Notes: generated by a model from the letters alone, not told the origin. A stretch of 64,000 nt of DNA from an uncultured Patescibacteria group bacterium (GCA_905478415.1 CAJQIG010000002.1:120834-184833); one strand, 5' to 3'; shown: positions 7,901-46,069, counted from the stretch's first letter. Numbers and translations: made by a program.

Positions 7901-10900
7901 TGCTGTGGTGAACCCCAAAATATCTGTACCACCTCTGAAGAGTCCGAGATCTAAATCATTTGTCCAGGTGTATTTTGGATCTGCAGCTGTCCCATCTGCA
8001 GAAGTTCTAAATTCGTCAGTTGCTGTAATGTCATCATCGGCCAAGATATCTCCATTTCCACCCACTCTTAAAGCCTCGGTAGACGGGGCTATACCAATCC
8101 CCACATTATCAGCAAAGTAAGCTCGACCGTCTGCATAGAGGTGTATGTTTGCACTTGCGGTAGAGGTGCCACCAAGAGCAAGATCGACAACGCTTGCATA
8201 CTCATCTTTTGGATGGAGTACGTTATCTGTGTTATCCCACCAACTGACTGATCCTAAGGTTGCAGGGTCAGTCCAAGTGTTGGCTCCACCAGCAGAAGAG
8301 GTGAGTAAGTAGCCTGAGGTGCCAGCATCACCGGCAACTCTGATGGCATCGGTGAGATTAAGTTCTCCGACAACATCAAGCTCATATCCTGGACTAGTAG
8401 AGCCGATCCCCACATTTCCAGCGGCATCAATTCTGAGTCGTTCGTTACTAGTTGCAAGTCCACCAGTAAAGAAGCGAATATCTCCACTAGCATGGTTGGA
8501 GATAAAGTCTAAACCAAGAGGTTCGAAACCGTTGTAGCCAGCAAATCCCATTCTGCCTGCAAAGTGAGTGAGTGAACCACCACCGGTAAAGCTATCAGCA
8601 TAGAGGCCAAAACCTCCACCTCTAGTAGCAGTTTCAAAGAGATATGATGAGTAGGCACCGGTGTTGTCTGTTTCATTGCTGACGAGCATAGCTGTATTGG
8701 CGTTTTGATCTTTTCTTACTACAACCTCATGTGTTGGAGTTCCAGTTCCGATTCCTATATTGCCATCACTACCTTGGACAAAAAAAGCATTCGCTTGGCC
8801 ACTAGCTTCAACTCTAAAGTCACTATCACTTCCTTGTTGGTTAAAGACGGCTGATCCATCTGCTAGGAGATGAATAGTTGCAGAGGCAGTACTGGTTCCT
8901 CCAAGTGCTAAATCAACCACACTTGCATACTCATCTGTAGGATGAAGTACATTGAGAGTGTTATCCCACCAAGTTACGCCGCTAATACTGGCAGGGTCTG
9001 TCCATGTGTTGACTCCTCCAGCAGAAGAAGTGAGGAAGTAACCAGAAGTTCCAGCATCACCGCCAGCTCGAATAGCATCAGCAAAATTGGCCTCACCATT
9101 AACATCAAGTTTGTAACCAGGAGAGCTACTGCCGATACCAACGTTGCCACTGCCATCAACCTCAAAAAGGGAGCCACTCGTATTATTAAGGACTTGGAAG
9201 GAGGTAGCCGTGGTATTGGTACCAAGCTGAAAAATAGATGCCCCAGAAGTACTCATATTATCAAAAATAAGATTTCCAGTGGCTGAAGTGATGTAGGAGT
9301 GAGAGCCAGTGTGGTACAGATCCAAATCGCCTCCAGCACCAATCTGGATTCGATCATTATCATTTCTGAGTAACAGATCATCTCCGAGAGAAACATTTCC
9401 TAGGTTTGTGTAGAGTGCATAGTTATTTGTGGCTCCTACGTTTTGACTTCCAACTAAAATTCCGTAGTTGTTAGTAATAGTGCCACCACCAGAATTAATA
9501 TTTGCATCAATGTATGCTGCAACCGCAGTTGTAATAGTGCCAGTGCTTTCATTATCGACGCGGCCATGAAGCGCATAGGCAGAAGTTATTGTTGAAGCTC
9601 CCGTTAATCTTACTTGGTTAAGCATACCTCTGACGACAGCCTGTGTACCAGAACTTGCACTGACATTTGTATTAATTTGAAGCGCGTTATACGTAGCAGC
9701 TCCAGCCACAGATCGAGTTGCATAGATTGAGTTAGCATATTGGGTAGCAGTGGCTTCTGAACTGGTTGAGGTGAGTCTGAGGCCATTCGTAAAGGTATCG
9801 TTTGTATTCGCTGTGATTGAGAGTCGAAGCGGAGAGCTTTGTTCGATTCTTGCATTAGCGTCATTGAACAAAATACCTGCGTTGCGCATGTTGAGGTCGC
9901 CATCAGCTTCTATGTTGGAAAGAATAGTACTACTACTATTTTGCCATTCTTGCAGGTTGGCTGTTTGACTGCCTGAGTTGGCTTTAATAATTTGGCCAAT
10001 ACGGCTATCTGACCCAGTGTTGAGTTGTAGTTTTGCTCCGGGACTAGATGTTCCAATTCCAACATTACCAGCAAGATATGCTTCACCATTAGATTGGAAG
10101 TGAACATTTGCACTGGCAGTTGAGTTACCTCCGAGTGCTAGGTCTACAACATCTGTGTACGGAGGCTTTGGATGGAAAACCCCAGCTGTGAGGTCCCAGT
10201 AGCCAGCTTCAACGATACTATAAGGTTCTGTCCAGTTATTAAGGCCACCCCCAGAAGATGTTAAAATGTAGTCGACGACACCAGCATCACCATTCAGGCG
10301 AATGGCATCGGTGAAGTTGGCTTCGCCGTTGACATCAAGTTTATAGCTGGGGGTGTTAGTACCTATTCCAACATTGCCATTAAAGACACCAGAAGTAACA
10401 ATTGCGGCTGGGTCTATATAGTAGCTGCTGTTACTAATATCAGTGAATCTATCGGCATAGGCGTAGCCGTTGTTGGCAATTCTGAAGCGAGTAACTCCAC
10501 TAGCACTAGCGGCTAGTATGTCTTGATCTCCTGTTTCATTGAGAATGCTCAAGGCTTTACCAACAACAGCTCCCTCAACATTGAGGAGGCCAACTGGGGT
10601 ACTTGTTCCGATTCCAACATTACCATTTTGATCCCAAGTGGTAAGAACAGTGGTATAGTTTTTAACTTGTAGAATGGGGCGATTTGCAATAGTTGAGCTA
10701 GTATTTTGACCGGTAAGTGTCAGGAGCGGATCTGTACCACTGTCTGTGGTAGCAATAGCCTGGATTTGACCAGCCACTGTCGAACCAGAGCCTTGAAATC
10801 TAATCTGAGGACTAAACAAGCTATCTGCAGAAGTCGCATTTCTGAAACTTAAGTATGCACCAGCATCATCACTGACTGACAGTTTTAAGAGTTCTTCTGC

Positions 10901-32086: not shown

Positions 32087-35000
32087 ATGAGTAAAAAAGT
32101 TGCCCGTCACATAGGACGAAGGGTGGCTCTGTTTTTGATGGCAGGGTCGTTCCTCTGCTTTTTTGCAGCTGGGTTCATCTTTTGGTATGGCCCTGGTAGT
32201 ACTGCTCAAAACCAAGAAGATGCTTTTTCCAATTCTGGAAAAGTTGCAGGAGTTTCCATTGATTCGTTTGGTAACACAGTTGATGCTCGAGGAAAAATCA
32301 AGGGCGTTGTTTCCCCCGAAGAAGCAGATAGTTTAGTTTTTCGAATAAAAACAGTTTTTAACGATACGGTTTCACTTGGTGAAGCTTTGGTTACAGGGAA
32401 TCTTGAAGTCGGCGGAGATTCTGTAGTTGATGGAGATGCAACGGTAGTAGGCAACTCCACCTTGGATGGTGATGTAACCGTTTCTGGAAACTCAAACTTT
32501 GCTGGGACGGTTTCTATTGATGGCAACTTAGTTGTTCAGGGAGGAGAGGTCGAGGCTTCAAATGTGATTTACTCAGTTCTGACTGGGAGCGGACTGACTC
32601 TCTCAGGAAATCAAAACATTACACTTACAAACTCAGATCTGGGTTCATCCCAAAACATTTTCAAAAATTTTAAGATAGAATCAACAACGCTCTCGGCGAA
32701 TTCAAACGATGACACACTGACTTTTACCGGAGGAGCAGGTGTTTCTCTTTCAAATGATGGTAAAACAATTACAATTGCTGCTGATAGTAATGAGCTCAAT
32801 GTCTCTGGGTGGGATGTGGGTACCGGTACCGTTTTCTTAACTACCTCAACTGACAACGTCGGAATTGGCACAACTAGCCCAACAAGTAAGCTCGATGTTG
32901 TCGGTGGATTAAAGGTTTCTTCTGGAGCAACTATCAACTCAGGAATTAATAATACTAGCGGAGGTATTACTAATGCTGGAGTTATCACCGGAGGAACGGG
33001 TTTTACTTCTTCTGGAACAATTACTCTTTCAGGTTTATCAACAGGTGTTCTACAAAGCAGTTTTGGAGGAGTACTTTCCTCTGGAGCTTTAAATATTGCA
33101 GGAGGAGGTAGTTATGTAACTGGTATCTTACCAGTTACTAATGGTGGTACCGGTTTGAATACGGTTACTGCTGGAGATTTACTCTATGCTAGTGGAGCTG
33201 ATACTTTAGCAAGTCTCGGTATTGGTGGAGATGGTCAAGTCTTGACTGTTTCTGGTGGTACTGTAGCTTGGGGAAGTGCTGGTGGTAGTGGTCCCTGTGC
33301 AACTTGTCTTATTACCGACCCCGGTACAACTCAAGTTATTACTCCAAGTGCGGCGACTGCAACAGGGCTTTCAATTAAGCAGGCAAGTAGTGGTTCGGTT
33401 GATGTCTTTAATGTGACTTCGTTTGATGGTTCTACTAAGTATTTTAGAGTAGACAGTTCTGGAAATGTATTGCTTGGAAGTGGAGTGACTTCGGCAATGG
33501 GAAACCTTTCGATTTCACCAACTGGCTCTGATCCGATTGTTATTGCACCGTTCGATGGTTTTAATGCTGCCCCCTTTAGTGGCACCGTGACTTCAGAAGA
33601 TTTAACAGCAGACAGAACTTGGACATTCCCTAACGAAAGTGGCGTTGTTTGTTTAGCCACTGGAAACTGTGCTGGCACGTCTGCTGGGATTGGCGGTAGT
33701 GGTACCACTGGTTACTTGACTAAATGGACTGATACTTACACCGTTGGAGCTTCAGTTTTATATGATAATGGTACGAATATTGGTATTGGTACTGCTACAC
33801 CGACAAGTAAGTTACATGTTGTTGGAACAGTTAACCTCAATGGAGTGACAACCATTGGGGCTGCCTTGACAGCAAGTTCAACGCTGAATGTCACAGGAAC
33901 CGCTACCTTAAGTAGTAGCTTACAAGTCGATGGCAGCACCGATCTCAACGATACCCTCGAGGTGACTGGTGTCACTACTTTGGGTTCGACACTCGGTGTG
34001 ACAGGGCAGGGAACATTCGGAGGTAATGTTGGCATTGGGAGCCTCTCTCCAAGTCAAGCACTCGACGTTTTAGGTGCGATGAGATTTGGTACTGCAGGTG
34101 CATATAACACGCTCAATACTTCTGCAGCTGTATCTGGTCCGACCGGTGATTTGTACTGGGGAGATAGAAGCGTTTGTGATAGTAGCGGCAACTGTGCAGG
34201 GACCTCAGCGGGCCTTGGTGGATCTGGTACAACGAACTATCTTGCCAAGTGGAGTAGTACTTATGGGCTTGGAAATTCTTTAGTTTTTGATAATGGAACT
34301 AATGTGGGTATTGGTTCTACTTCACCTACAGCAACACTTGATGTAGTAGGAAGTTTGAGATTAAACGATGGTAGCTACTCAGCTCCGTCACTCACCTTTA
34401 GAACTAACTCAGATGCTGGTTTTTACGAAGAGCCACTCGGTGGGGGATATGTTGCTTATGCTTCAGGAGGCCAAGCTCGGTACTTTTTCACTGCCAACTC
34501 ATTATCTGGAAGGGACACGGGTTCATTCTATTTACTTCGTGCCCCAGGTGATGCAACGACACCGACCTTTTCATTTGTTGGTGACACCAACACTGGTATG
34601 GCTCGAGCTACTGCAGATGAACTAACTCTTATTACTGGTGGAAGTGAGCGACTCCGCGTTAATGCATCTGGAAATGTTGGGATAGGTACCAGTGCTCCGC
34701 TTGGAAAGTTTGATGTTCAAGGCGCAGCTGTGGGTAAGGCATTAGTAATTCTGAACGAAACAGGTAACCAGGCGATTTTTGCAGCTTCAGCAAGTGGTGC
34801 TACAAAGTTTTTGATTGCGAATGATGGCAATGTCGGTATTGGTTCCACTTCTCCAGGCTATTCACTAGACACAGTCGGCACAACAAGATTGCAAGGCACC
34901 ACCACCGGTGGAGGAAACGGACTGTATGTGAATGATGATAGTCAGGTTGGTATTGGAGGGACACCAGTTGCGTTTCACACCCTTACGGTCGATACTTCTT

Positions 35001-39859: not shown

Positions 39860-40399
39860 TAGTGGTTTTTAACAAAACATGTTAATTTGCAATCTATAGT
39901 TACCCACTCTTTCATGTTTTGCATATGTTAGCAAGTAGTAATTTATAAAATAGGCGAAAAAAATACGAATAATAGTTGAGAAAAATAGGAAAAAAGAAGC
40001 GAGCTCATTTGTAGGTCCAAAATCGGCTTATCTCACCTTTTCCTATACGAAGAGACATGATTCAAAAAGAGAGTTGTCAGTACTCTTACTCGATAAACAC
40101 ATGCTTTTTTGTATTTCTCTGTACCAGGGAGACCTGGAAAAAATCTACATACATCTTATCTCTCGGCAGTGCTTTGTTTTTTTTGATACTAAAAGAAAAA
40201 GTGTTTTACTGTTTCTGCCTAACGAGAATCAAAGAGCGGAAAATGAAAAAAGTGTCAGCAGTTTTTGAGACTATTTTAAGTAAAAATTTAAAACACGTAG
40301 ATAACCCGTAAATAATTGTTTTATGCTCTTTTAGTAAAAAGAGAGGTTCTGTTTTGTAAAAAATCACTAATAGAGTACTTTTTGTTTGTCTGGTAGATT

Positions 40400-40755
40400 G
40401 ATAATTTAGTTTAATGGGGTGTCCAGTGGTTGCAACAAAATGTACTCAAAATAATTCGGGTAACATTTGGATGTTAGACCTTACTCAGTTTGTCTGATAT
40501 ACTGTGGTTACATTCGTTTTGAAGGAAAGTCGCGCTTCCGGATAGCACTTTTTTCTTGAGAAAAAGTACTAGCGAAGACCACAAAATATGGTCCGTCTGA
40601 GCACGTTACGCAGAGACTTACGAGCAAAAACATGCAAGATAAGTCAACAAGTTTGTACTAGTGATGGTACAGAAAAGAGAGGGTGGTACCGTTTAAAACA
40701 GATGTATACTGTTGTAAGCCCCTTTTTGTATGAAGTATCGAATCAATGCATCACT
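40400..40755 (+). promoter_or_regulatory. Candidate T-box riboswitch-type leader upstream of argS (T-box core AGGGTGGTACCG at 40680-40691)
   Basis: Exact match to the conserved T-box core GGGUGGUACCG, whose UGGU bulge fits a tRNA with A73 (the tRNA-Arg in this window has an A discriminator). Preceded by hairpin GTACtagtgatgGTAC (40655-40670). Candidate Arg specifier AGA triplets lie upstream. No canonical downstream terminator seen. Confidence 0.4.
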
Positions 40756-42702
40756 ATGCCATCCACTTATTCAACTGTAGCCACACTTAAAGACTTTGTT
40801 TTTGATGCGCTCACACGACTCCAGTTATCCCAAAACACTTCGATTGATGATTTTATTGTTGAACGGGTTAGTGACCCAGCTCATGGTCATTTTTCTACGA
40901 CTGTAGCACTCAAACTTTATGGGGCCTTACAAAAGGATGCCCCAGAACTACTTGCATCACTGCAAGTCTCAAACCCCAGAGAGCTTGCTCAAAAAATTGC
41001 AGATGAGCTCGTCCAGGGAACTACTGAAGTCTTTGCAGATGTTTCTGTGGCCGGCGCTGGATTTGTAAATATGCGACTGACTACGTCATTTATTTTGGCT
41101 CAGCTTTCAGACCACTGTACCGAAGCAGCTATTCAGATAGATCAAGAGTTACAAGACCAAAAAATTATGGTTGAGTTTACCGACCCAAATCCGTTCAAAG
41201 AACTACACATCGGGCATTTGTACAGTAATACCGTTGGTGAAGCGATTTCACGCATCTTAGAAGCCCAAGGAGCGATAGTTCATCGTGCTTGTTACCAAGG
41301 TGATGTGGGTATGCATGTAGCGAAGAGTATTTGGGGGATGCGACAGCTGTTCACAGAAGAGTTTGCTGAGCTGTCATATTCAGAAGCTTTGCAAAAACTC
41401 GAAATGCAAAATCTCTCAAGTCGAGTTAAATTCCTCGGACGTTCCTATGCAGTTGGAGCCACAGCTTACAAAGAAGATCCAGCAGCTGCTGAGGAAATGA
41501 AAGATATTAACTACTTAACGTTTCTCTCAGGTCAAGAAAATCTTGTGGCTGAAGGTGGTTGGGAGCCACAGGTCGATTATCGTCAATATGTAGCCCAGAC
41601 AAACCTTGATTTTGAAGAAATTAAAACGCTTTACACGCAGGGGAGAGCTTGGTCTCTCGACTATTTCAACCAGATGTATGAGCGAATTGGTATGCAGTTT
41701 GACAACTTCTTTTACGAAAGTGTTGTGGGTGAGTATGGTGCCAAAATTGTGAAAGAATTTCTCAAAAAAGGAGTCTTTGAAGAGAGCCAAGGGGCAGTCA
41801 TTTTTCCTGGTAAAAAACATGGCTTACATGACAGAGTTTTCATTAACTCGCTGGGACTTCCTACCTACGAGGCTAAGGAACTCGGTCTGGCTCCAGAAAA
41901 GTATAGACGTTTCGCATACGATACTTCACTCATCATTACAGGAAATGAAATTGACGAGTATTTTAAAGTGTTGTTAAAAGCTTTAGAGTTCACTAATCCC
42001 GATCTTCGAGCCAAAACAAAACACCTGTCTCACGGCATGGTTCGATTGCCCGAAGGCAAAATGTCGAGCCGAACGGGAAAGATTTTGAGTGCCCAATGGT
42101 TGATTGATGAAGCTCATACACGTATCACTACCGTGCTTGCAGATACCCGCGAACACATGAGTCAAGCAGATCGTGACCAAATCTCAGAGGTAGTGGGGCT
42201 CAGCGCCATTAAATTCGCCTTTTTAAAGCAGTCAGTAGGCAAAGATATTGCTTTTAACTTTGAAGAATCGTTGGCATTTAGCGGAAATTCTGGACCGTAC
42301 CTCTTGTATTCATATGTTAGAACCAAGAGCGTTTTACAAAAGGCCGAGGACGCAGCCAAAGAAAGCCAAAAAAGATCTATTGCTAAACAATTTGATATGG
42401 TTAATGATATTATGAAGTCACAAAAGTATGCTTTTTCACAAACCGAAGAAGATATCTTACTTAATATATTGATATATTCTGATAGCTTTAAAAAAGCAGC
42501 CCAAGAATATGCTCCACACCACATTGCAGTGCATCTTTTTGAATTAGCACAGCTTTTTAATGTTTTCTACAGTGAGGGGCAAATTGTTGCTACAAAGCAG
42601 CCCGAAGTGAGTGCTGTTAGAATAGTGATAACGAGACTTGTTTCACAGGTGCTCGAACATGGATTAGTTAGTCTTGGTATTAAAACAGTAGAAAAAATGT
42701 AA
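40756..42702 (+). CDS. argS: Arginyl-tRNA synthetase. Start chosen at MPSTYSTVATLKD; alternative ATG at 40702. The long ORF start at 40588 is rejected because the T-box core lies inside it.
   Basis: N-terminal Arg_tRNA_synt_N-like region, HIGH motif (ELHIGHLYSNTVGE), MSSRTGK (KMSK-like), and a C-terminal DALR anticodon-binding region. Confidence 0.9.
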   Translation: MPSTYSTVATLKDFVFDALTRLQLSQNTSIDDFIVERVSDPAHGHFSTTVALKLYGALQKDAPELLASLQVSNPRELAQKIADELVQGTTEVFADVSVAGAGFVNMRLTTSFILAQLSDHCTEAAIQIDQELQDQKIMVEFTDPNPFKELHIGHLYSNTVGEAISRILEAQGAIVHRACYQGDVGMHVAKSIWGMRQLFTEEFAELSYSEALQKLEMQNLSSRVKFLGRSYAVGATAYKEDPAAAEEMKDINYLTFLSGQENLVAEGGWEPQVDYRQYVAQTNLDFEEIKTLYTQGRAWSLDYFNQMYERIGMQFDNFFYESVVGEYGAKIVKEFLKKGVFEESQGAVIFPGKKHGLHDRVFINSLGLPTYEAKELGLAPEKYRRFAYDTSLIITGNEIDEYFKVLLKALEFTNPDLRAKTKHLSHGMVRLPEGKMSSRTGKILSAQWLIDEAHTRITTVLADTREHMSQADRDQISEVVGLSAIKFAFLKQSVGKDIAFNFEESLAFSGNSGPYLLYSYVRTKSVLQKAEDAAKESQKRSIAKQFDMVNDIMKSQKYAFSQTEEDILLNILIYSDSFKKAAQEYAPHHIAVHLFELAQLFNVFYSEGQIVATKQPEVSAVRIVITRLVSQVLEHGLVSLGIKTVEKM

Positions 42703-45842: not shown

Positions 45843-45997
45843 TCCCCTCCGGGGGTTAACCAGGCGCTTCGTAGTGTTTAGTTGAAAAAAGTTTTTGGTC
45901 GCTTGGTGGTAGAACTACTTTCGCATGGCTCAAGTGGCTCAGTTCAGTTGCAAGGAACTATATAAAAAAACAGACACCTGTCTGTCATTTTTATATG

Positions 45998-46069
45998 TGT
46001 CCCCACCGGGAATCGAACCTGGAGCCGTCGCTTAGGAGGCGACTGTTTTATCCGTTAAACTATGAGGAC
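45998..46069 (-). tRNA. tRNA-Arg (anticodon CCU)
   Basis: Manual fold of the reverse complement. Acceptor GTCCTCA/TGGGGAC; D-stem GTTT/AAAC with GG in the loop; anticodon stem GTCGC/GCGAC with loop CTCCTAA (U33, anticodon CCT, A37); T-arm CCAGG-TTCGATT-CCCGG (one A.C mismatch); discriminator A; CCA not encoded. Confidence 0.8.

Follow-up and report, generated by a model that had tools for sequence, protein, structure and literature searches.

A predicted miniaturised T-box riboswitch in the argS leader of an uncultured Patescibacteria group bacterium

The 64,000-nucleotide stretch of DNA analysed here, from an uncultured Patescibacteria group bacterium (GCA_905478415.1 CAJQIG010000002.1:120834-184833; hereafter the window, with positions counted from its first letter), carries argS, the gene for a 648-residue arginyl-tRNA synthetase (ArgRS), at 40756–42702 on the + strand. 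The 5′ leader of this gene, at 40510–40727, most probably folds into a miniaturised T-box riboswitch that senses uncharged tRNA-Arg. Its predicted decoding and discriminator parts are well supported by comparison with related leaders, and we regard the leader as a T-box of reduced architecture, in a phylum for which no report of such an element was found.

The 12-nucleotide T-box string on which a preliminary description of this region was built, AGGGTGGTACCG, is indeed present as a single exact copy at 40680–40691 on the + strand. About 0.05 matches with at most one mismatch are expected from dinucleotide shuffles, and the sole other match in the window, ATGGTGGTACCG at 33141–33152, has one mismatch, lies within a 1547-residue open reading frame (ORF) and has no A1/A2 context; it is a chance match. 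The shorter core TGGNACC occurs at 57 sites on both strands of the window, and at one of these only, 40684, do a flush A1 helix and a neighbouring A2 hairpin flank the core.

Searching genome and metagenome collections with ArgRS gave 85 Patescibacteria loci, with 12 more from exact-protein look-up (cited below by L numbers). The conservation in related genomes that the preliminary description had left to be checked is found in eight distinct Patescibacteria argS leaders, which hold UGGUACC in a 7-nucleotide bulge and all stand upstream of argS or an argS operon. Leaders homologous to that of the window occur at L001 (with identical copies L037 and L086), L087 and L088, where the ArgRS proteins are 64–65% identical to the one in the window. 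In the independent lineages L015, L025, L062 and L097, UGGUACC elements precede argS or a short operon that ends in argS. Seven tabulated lineages share one plan, Stem I[..GUCGCR..], Stem II[..CWAAAU..] and A1-UGGUACC-A2, with a GUCGC(G/A) apical loop of 7–10 nucleotides and CWAAAU in a small Stem II loop, on helices of unrelated sequence; the A2 strands, for example, read GUUUAAAACAG/CUGUUGUAAGC in the window, ACGUAUACA/UGUAUAUGU in L087, ACCAA/UUGGU in L001 and GUCGC/GCGAC in L062. The table omits L015, for which the A1-bulge-A2 arrangement comes from a constrained fold. In L015, L025, L062 and L097, the unconstrained fold exchanges the antiterminator for a strong hairpin built with the A1 3′ strand and with a U-run behind it, as in the terminators of L025 (GCCCCUUU...AAGGGGC, then UUUUUU) and L097 (ACGUCCCUGAGA...UCUGAGGGACG, then UUUUUU). 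This overlap in four lineages is the canonical arrangement of T-box attenuation and, together with the plan shared by seven lineages, makes a chance resemblance to a T-box very unlikely.

The structure of the window leader was built by hand and placed on an alignment of four leaders (window, L001, L087 and L088). In this alignment 81.7% of the cells pair, compared with 40–52% when the 3′ partners are slid by 1–3 columns; double-sided changes occur in six pairs, the observed covariation score was reached by none of 500 shuffles, and six of the eight helices are supported by covariation, all of these statistics resting on four close sequences only. In the MAFFT alignment, the strands of Stem II and of P0, the proposed base helix, are off register by one column, and a check by hand found the pairing in every sequence; when long and short leaders were aligned jointly by MAFFT, Stems I and II came out misaligned.

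At the 5′ end, the tentative helix P0 would join UUCGUU at 40513–40518 to AGCGAA at 40571–40576. The UUCGU/ACGAA duplex beats shuffles in all four members of the clade (p = 0.15, 0.07, 0.07 and 0.02), in each of which an RCGAA block lies directly 5′ of Stem II. Within P0, the predicted ultrashort Stem I (40524–40539) has the sequence GGAA-AGUCGCGC-UUCC, with the specifier CGC at 40531–40533 followed by the purine G40534. It is paired in 93.8% of cells and shows compensatory changes in two of its four pairs (A-U to G-C and the reverse, and G-C to A-U or G-U). A longer Stem I, proposed by cmscan and by the minimum-energy fold of the single sequence (AGGAA/UUCUU with a kink-turn UGA/GAGA), was rejected: it is lost in L001, L087 and L088, where the 4-bp hairpin is kept, and the UGA/GAGA that cmscan aligns to the kink-turn is unconserved in these three leaders. 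A variable hairpin, CUUUUU[UCUUGAG]AAAAAG at 40548–40566, was read from the sequence; L001, L087 and L088 have a hairpin at the same place that differs in sequence and length.

Stem II is reduced to a small hairpin, GACCA[CAAAAUA]UGGUC at 40577–40593, that retains all five pairs in the four sequences, with changes between C-G and U-A or U-G, and no S-turn is recognisable in it. The putative Stem IIA/B-like pseudoknot at 40594–40612 contains an F-box-like CGUUA and pairs CGU (40594–40596) with ACG (40603–40605) and GC (40601–40602) with GC (40610–40611); CGUCUGAGCACGUUA falls on the IIA element in the Rfam alignment. Pairing in the two pseudoknot helices is 91.7%, and a single compensatory change occurs (C-G to U-A in L088); IIB is only 2 bp long in the window. 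An extra hairpin, GACUUA...UAAGUC at 40615–40645, separates the pseudoknot from Stem III, is 95.8% paired and has compensatory changes in two pairs. The short hairpin that the preliminary description had assigned to the Stem III position is present and is placed there by the Rfam alignment as well. Stem III occupies roughly 40652–40673 and is followed by a purine-rich linker, AGAAAAG; its core GTAC-tagtgatg-GTAC (40655–40670) extends to UUGUAC/GUACAG, and the helix is 95.2% paired with one compensatory change. Of the elements between Stem I and the discriminator, Stem II and Stem III have good support.

The predicted discriminator at 40676–40727 adopts an antiterminator-type fold (constrained fold, −14.3 kcal/mol) that conforms to the seven-lineage plan. 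It comprises the A1 5′ strand AGAGAGGG (40676–40683), the 7-nucleotide bulge UGGUACC (40684–40690), the A2 hairpin GUUUAAAACAG[AUGUAUA]CUGUUGUAAGC (40691–40719, 10 of 11 pairs formed) and the A1 3′ strand CCCUUUUU (40720–40727). The A1 helix is 8 bp long and is 100% paired across the four members of the clade. Two other candidates in this region were discarded. A U-run at 40723–40727, which might be taken for a terminator tail, belongs to the extended A1 helix (AGAGA/UUUUU), of which it forms the 3′ strand, and is unconserved in the relatives. A long-range helix in which RNAalifold pairs CAUUCGUU at the 5′ end with the 5′ strand of the T-box gave p = 0.22–0.83 against shuffles, and probably arises from misalignment of A2 by MAFFT.

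The element lies inside the long argS ORF, which runs for 704 codons from ATG 40588. As the preliminary description had suspected, the 56-codon 5′ extension (40588–40755, + strand) is noncoding leader RNA, because the starts of homologues match ATG 40756, 25–35 residues or so ahead of the (V/I/L)E(R/H/Y)P..(D/Q/A).HG(D/H/Q) motif, and an in-frame TAA separates the T-box motif from the ATG in L001, the closest relative. The genes called at homologous loci carry PF03485, PF00750 and PF05746. That the motif might be a coincidence within a genuine N-terminal extension of ArgRS would be consistent with the ORF being open from 40588, with the same over-extended ArgRS being produced by a gene caller (P0001), and with the sub-threshold Rfam score. 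Such an extension, however, has no counterpart among the 24 homologue N-termini examined, and the extensions in P0001–P0003 show no mutual relation; apart from the stop codon in L001, nucleotide conservation in 40588–40755 tracks covarying RNA helices with compensatory changes and not codons, and ATG 40588 itself falls in the loop and 3′ strand of the conserved Stem II hairpin. We consider this explanation extremely improbable, and the same applies to a start at the in-frame ATG 40702, with GAGAGGGUGG as its Shine-Dalgarno sequence, an ArgRS longer by 18 residues and an incidental likeness to a T-box. The sequence GAGAGGGUGG is purine-rich and Shine-Dalgarno-like, and no Shine-Dalgarno sequence precedes ATG 40756. 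The spacing from GGUGG to 40702 is about 15 nucleotides, though, and that ATG is located in the A2 loop; relatives retain UGGUACC and the A1/A2 pairing with no equivalent ATG, and the homologue N-termini fit 40756.

The preliminary description had named an Arg codon in the Stem I specifier loop as a feature to be sought, and CGC in the apical loop is such a codon, in the leader of the gene for the cognate synthetase. It is the only triplet that all seven lineages conserve in the Stem I loop, the next base being G or A, and in L062 it is centred in a 7-nucleotide loop, G-U-CGC-G-A, that resembles an anticodon loop. Specifiers ending in C (NNC) are the norm in the T-box family. Given the conserved CGC, the ligand should be tRNA-Arg(GCG), whose anticodon is the perfect Watson-Crick partner, or tRNA-Arg(ACG/ICG), which also reads CGC, and not tRNA-Arg(CCU). 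The proposal of tRNA-Arg(CCU) in the preliminary description thus holds in one respect only: the bulge sequence UGGU predicts A73, and this discriminator base is found in tRNA-Arg(CCU) of the window, as it is in a tRNA-Arg(GCG) encoded in L015. The tRNA-Arg(CCU) gene is located at 45997–46069 on the − strand, has no encoded CCA, and is syntenic, a few kilobases downstream of argS, in several relatives (L001 at 8086–8158, L002, L003, L005 and L006). As a reader of AGG that shares only A73, its product is probably not the effector.

Two other specifiers were considered and set aside. AGG, which would match tRNA-Arg(CCU), occurs only in the Stem I 5′ strand of the window clade, and L025 lacks it; CGA-A before Stem II is confined to four close relatives, forms part of the proposed P0, and is absent in L062 and L025. 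As a separate observation, L094 carries at about 1270–1350, directly upstream of argS, what reads by eye as a tRNA-Arg(CCG) with encoded CCA, which has been absorbed into the 726-residue ArgRS ORF call P0069.

The loop also bears on the question of what binds the leader. Synthetase autoregulation by mRNA mimicry is known, and the argS leader could be an operator for ArgRS itself, comparable to the tRNA-mimicking thrS operator of E. coli; a loop of 7–10 nucleotides with U before and a purine after the central triplet does resemble an anticodon loop. The triplet displayed is the codon CGC, however, and not an Arg anticodon, and UGGUACC, complementary to ACCA, together with a fold that overlaps a terminator in four lineages, is a T-box signature with no role in an operator of this kind. 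The chances of an ArgRS operator are accordingly rated as very slight, and binding of tRNA by a T-box remains the preferred interpretation.

By analogy with the known T-box mechanism, uncharged tRNA-Arg would contact the leader at two points. The anticodon GCG (or ICG, from ACG) would pair with CGC, which the apical loop of the 4-bp Stem I displays together with a purine on its 3′ side, a contact that is probably supported by the Stem II hairpin with its A-rich loop and by the IIA/B-type pseudoknot. The tRNA 3′ end, A73-C-C-A, would pair with UGGU of UGGUACC and lock the A1/A2 antiterminator-type fold, and a charged tRNA would be unable to pair with the bulge. How binding is converted into an output in the window clade is less evident, and our best guess, a tentative one, is occlusion of the start codon at the level of translation, ranked ahead of another transcriptional or stability mechanism, with loss of regulation last. 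Without tRNA, the purine-rich T-box strand GGGUGGUA (40681–40688) would pair with UGCCAUCC at 40757–40764, that is, U-G of the start codon and codons 2–3, and GAG (40677–40679) with CUU (40766–40768), so that the candidate occlusion partner spans 40757–40768 on the + strand; binding of the tRNA would then free the start codon. The UGCCAUCC/GGGUGGUA pairing is found in the unconstrained minimum-energy fold, with a duplex energy of −14.1 kcal/mol (p = 0.08 against shuffles), and enforcing the antiterminator raises the predicted accessibility of the start region of the window from 0.32 to 0.63.

In a local E-value scan of 40000–40900, RF00230 is the best match (40508–40726, 22 bits), with E = 0.013 for this 901-nucleotide search, and the homologous leader of L087 gives a separate RF00230 match (20.2 bits, E = 0.017). 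The alignment in the window covers model positions 1–219 from end to end, with Stem I squeezed to 24 nucleotides instead of 75, CGUUA on the IIA/F-box region, the GTAC hairpin on Stem III and the antiterminator cleanly aligned. By itself the RF00230 match is weak evidence, and it is the comparative evidence that carries the case.

A number of results weigh against the T-box assignment or against the proposed output. The score of 22 bits falls far short of the family gathering score of 93 bits, and on the terms of the preliminary description, which had named a score below threshold as a refutation, this formally contradicts the assignment; Rfam in gathering mode finds no T-box in the window, only the tRNA-Arg(CCU). 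A whole-locus E-value scan of the relatives likewise finds no T-box, and targeted RF00230 scans give only a local match of 13 bits in L062, and neither L025 nor L015 has a match at E ≤ 1. The leader as a whole folds no better than shuffles (z = −0.93), the kink-turn and distal platform of Stem I are absent in the window, and, as noted above, the covariation rests on few and close sequences. No CGC-reading tRNA-Arg of this genome lies inside the window. The loop sequence GUCGCG also holds GCG, an Ala codon, and tRNA-Ala(CGC) genes are found near argS at several loci; an overlapping GCG/GCA reading is nevertheless unlikely, since the regulated gene is argS. With respect to output, the terminator scan, the folds and the duplex and cofolding tests found no mutually exclusive terminator or conserved sequestrator in the window clade. 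Equivalent start-region duplexes in the relatives occur at other positions and lack significance (p = 0.24, 0.76 and 0.54), cofolding of the whole discriminator with the start region gives p = 0.16, 0.04, 0.53 and 0.13 against shuffles, and enforcing the antiterminator opens the start region slightly in L088, leaves it unchanged in L087 and closes it in L001.

The low Rfam score of the leader is read as a sign of truncated architecture and not of absence, because T-boxes of Saccharibacteria that are followed by clear terminators also reach only 33–46 bits. For the output, the sequestrator tests are suggestive in the window, marginal in L001 and L088, and null in L087. Only in L087 does the antiterminator 3′ strand take part in a classical alternative hairpin (−18.2 kcal/mol, p = 0.024), and no U-run goes with it. 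Because of these differences no conserved expression platform can be claimed, and start-codon occlusion, as modelled, fits the window weakly and is not conserved in the relatives. The preliminary description had envisaged translational control as in Actinobacteria through an anti-sequestrator and a ribosome-binding site. This type of control is plausible given the ultrashort Stem I, but the pairing itself finds no counterpart, as there is neither a Shine-Dalgarno sequence nor a conserved sequestrator. The predicted lack of a terminator after the motif is borne out, with no intrinsic-terminator-like site on the + strand between 39700 and 41000.

These same findings could be explained by a relic, that is, a T-box by descent which still folds and may bind tRNA, but which has lost its terminator and no longer regulates, leaving argS constitutive. 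Apart from the lack of a terminator or Shine-Dalgarno sequestrator in the window, L001, L087 and L088, the spacer to the ATG ranges from 28 to about 150 nucleotides, and T-boxes are missing from L089 and L002, where the promoter is conserved, and from L096, with outright loss in L089. At odds with decay, the specifier loop, UGGUACC, the loop of Stem II and Stem III itself are either unchanged or compensated despite an ArgRS identity of 64–65%, which argues for purifying selection on the RNA, and the A1 helices are longer rather than decayed. We therefore judge a relic to be improbable and retain a functional T-box as the preferred interpretation.

The loci without the element show that the argS T-box is sporadic and has been lost repeatedly: L089 (640–1050) and L002 (about 1850–1980) keep the promoter block and have no T-box, the leader of L089 being about 120 nucleotides long with the T-box part deleted, and L096 (about 1000–1200) has no T-box and keeps the upstream ATGTACTC motif. 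Among the loci that have the element, the argS T-boxes of L025 (3400–3990), L062 (1736–2495) and L097 (940–1200) are compact, show CGC in the apical loop and are coupled to intrinsic terminators; counted from Stem I and with the antiterminator included, the L062 element spans about 113 nucleotides. The gene that comes first under this control codes in L025 for a tRNA_bind (PF01588) protein and in L062 for an NYN-domain (PF01936) protein, ahead of argS. In L015 (3640–3700), Stem I is a longer hairpin with internal loops that resemble kink-turns (z = −4.0) and without a CGC apical loop.

The leader is preceded by a predicted sigma-70-type promoter at 40475–40503 on the + strand, with TAGACC, a spacing of 17 nucleotides and an extended −10 element TGaTATACT, identified by a consensus scan. 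Transcription is predicted to start at about 40510, judged from the promoter end, and the Rfam match starts at about the same place. The promoter block GTTAGACC..TACTC..TTGATATACT is conserved in alignments of L001, L087 and L089, and in L002 by BLASTN; the contig of L088 starts within the leader and does not cover it. At the other end, a 28-nucleotide linker (40728–40755, + strand) without a Shine-Dalgarno-like sequence leads to the start codon, and in L001, L087 and L088 the spacer between T-box and ATG is unconserved, at about 75–150 nucleotides. Farther upstream, CAACAAAATGTACTCAA at 40433–40449 lies directly upstream of the −35 element, with a partly inverted partner, TAGAGTAC, about 60 nucleotides farther upstream at 40371–40378. 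The downstream motif of the two is conserved in L001, L087 and L089 and also occurs in L095 and L096, which lack a T-box, and it may be a transcription-factor site. Directly after the gene for a metallo-beta-lactamase-domain (ComEC-like) protein, a conserved intergenic block at 39873–39950, TGTTAATTTGC..TATA..TCTTTCATGTTT, is common to L001, L087, L089, L002 and L003 and contains no conserved ORF.

Among known T-boxes, those of actinobacterial ileS genes in Mycobacterium and Nocardia, which have an ultrashort Stem I and act on translation as summarised in PMC7583486 (Sherwood et al. 2015), are closest to the argS element of the window. T-boxes in which a short Stem I carries the specifier in its apical loop form an established class (PMC7583486). 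Both have a specifier placed in this way and followed by a purine, a short Stem I without a distal platform for binding the tRNA elbow, a Stem II with a IIA/B pseudoknot that is putative in the window, a Stem III, and an A1-bulge-A2 fold with UGGN, and the window clade shows no intrinsic terminator. They differ in that the specifier is Arg (CGC) in the window and Ile (AUC) in the actinobacterial elements, and that Stem II here is a 3–5-bp hairpin with a CWAAAU loop, whereas theirs is a longer stem with an S-turn. Moreover, the window clade has no recognisable kink-turn, no Shine-Dalgarno sequence to mask and two extra hairpins, and L025, L062 and L097, with the same decoding module, use intrinsic terminators.

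With the canonical transcriptional T-boxes of Firmicutes (RF00230; for example B. subtilis tyrS and glyQS) the window shares AGGGUGGUACCG, identical to their consensus, and it agrees with them in the topology of the antiterminator, in where Stem III lies, in the F-box-like CGUUA, in the synthetase target and in the C-ending specifier. Stem I is a 16-nucleotide hairpin in the window and about 90 nucleotides long in Firmicutes, the specifier is in the terminal and not in an internal loop, and the AG bulge, the distal loop and the terminator are missing. Firmicutes also have argS T-boxes, such as that of one of the three argS copies of B. cereus ATCC 10987 (PMC2494555). These share the gene and the amino-acid specificity class with the window, but belong to another phylum, have a canonical long Stem I, and show no detectable sequence relationship beyond the T-box core.

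A further set of T-boxes was noted in metagenome-assembled genomes of Saccharibacteria, at L027 (6263–6411), L028 (6354–6514) and L030 (6089–6230), where each follows argS and precedes a class I synthetase gene. They match RF00230 with 33–46 bits (E = 2e-7 to 6e-4), and that of L030 has an ultrashort Stem I with a kink-turn, AUC followed by A in the apical loop, and a classical terminator after it. Like the window element, they belong to the candidate phyla radiation (CPR) and have an ultrashort Stem I, a specifier in its apical loop and a sub-threshold Rfam score, but they have an Ile specifier, keep the kink-turn and a classical terminator, and are nearer to the Rfam consensus. They resemble the actinobacterial ileS T-boxes and yet are transcriptional; since Saccharibacteria live on Actinobacteria, horizontal transfer is conceivable. 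The synthetase encoded after the T-box of L028 (6579–9635; PF00133, Anticodon_1) contains an inserted histidine phosphatase domain (PF00300, residues 509–664). The scores suggest that T-boxes of CPR bacteria in general fall under the Rfam threshold.

Surveys place T-boxes in Firmicutes, Actinobacteria, Chloroflexi, Deinococcus-Thermus and a few Proteobacteria (one such survey is PMC2494555). In line with the preliminary description, which knew of no T-box regulation in CPR organisms, a full-text literature search of limited coverage found no T-box reports for Patescibacteria, CPR, Saccharibacteria or TM7. The observations can be combined into a broader proposal: Patescibacteria would have a minimal T-box lineage of their own, with elements of about 115–220 nucleotides, an apical-loop specifier and a hairpin-sized Stem II, which is coupled to terminators in the relatives and, in the window clade, has replaced the terminator by masking a start codon without a Shine-Dalgarno sequence, so that GGGUGGUA would be contested between the AUG and the 3′ end of the tRNA. 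As a whole this combination is rather doubtful. If true, it would extend T-boxes to the CPR, beside the Terrabacteria phyla Firmicutes, Actinobacteria, Chloroflexi and Deinococcus-Thermus, and the CPR elements would fit either an ancient origin or acquisition from hosts.

Several consequences follow for annotation and for the study of T-boxes. Scores of 13–46 bits against an Rfam threshold of 93 mean that annotation pipelines miss the T-boxes of CPR bacteria, and gene callers stretch ArgRS ORFs into the leader, as in the 704-residue ORF of the window and in P0001–P0003. According to PMC7583486, transcriptional T-boxes generally need a long Stem I; the combination of an ultrashort Stem I with terminators in the relatives would run against this view and provides a test of the idea that they require an elbow platform for fast tRNA capture. 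The size of the L062 element suggests a lower bound for tRNA recognition by a T-box, which makes it attractive for structural work.

Bacteria of the CPR (Patescibacteria) have tiny genomes and few recognisable regulators, and very little is known of how their gene expression is controlled. A riboswitch that senses tRNA in front of an essential synthetase gene would, if true, be among the few cis-regulatory RNAs identified in the CPR, and it would tie the supply of ArgRS to the charging of tRNA with arginine in organisms that must scavenge their amino acids.

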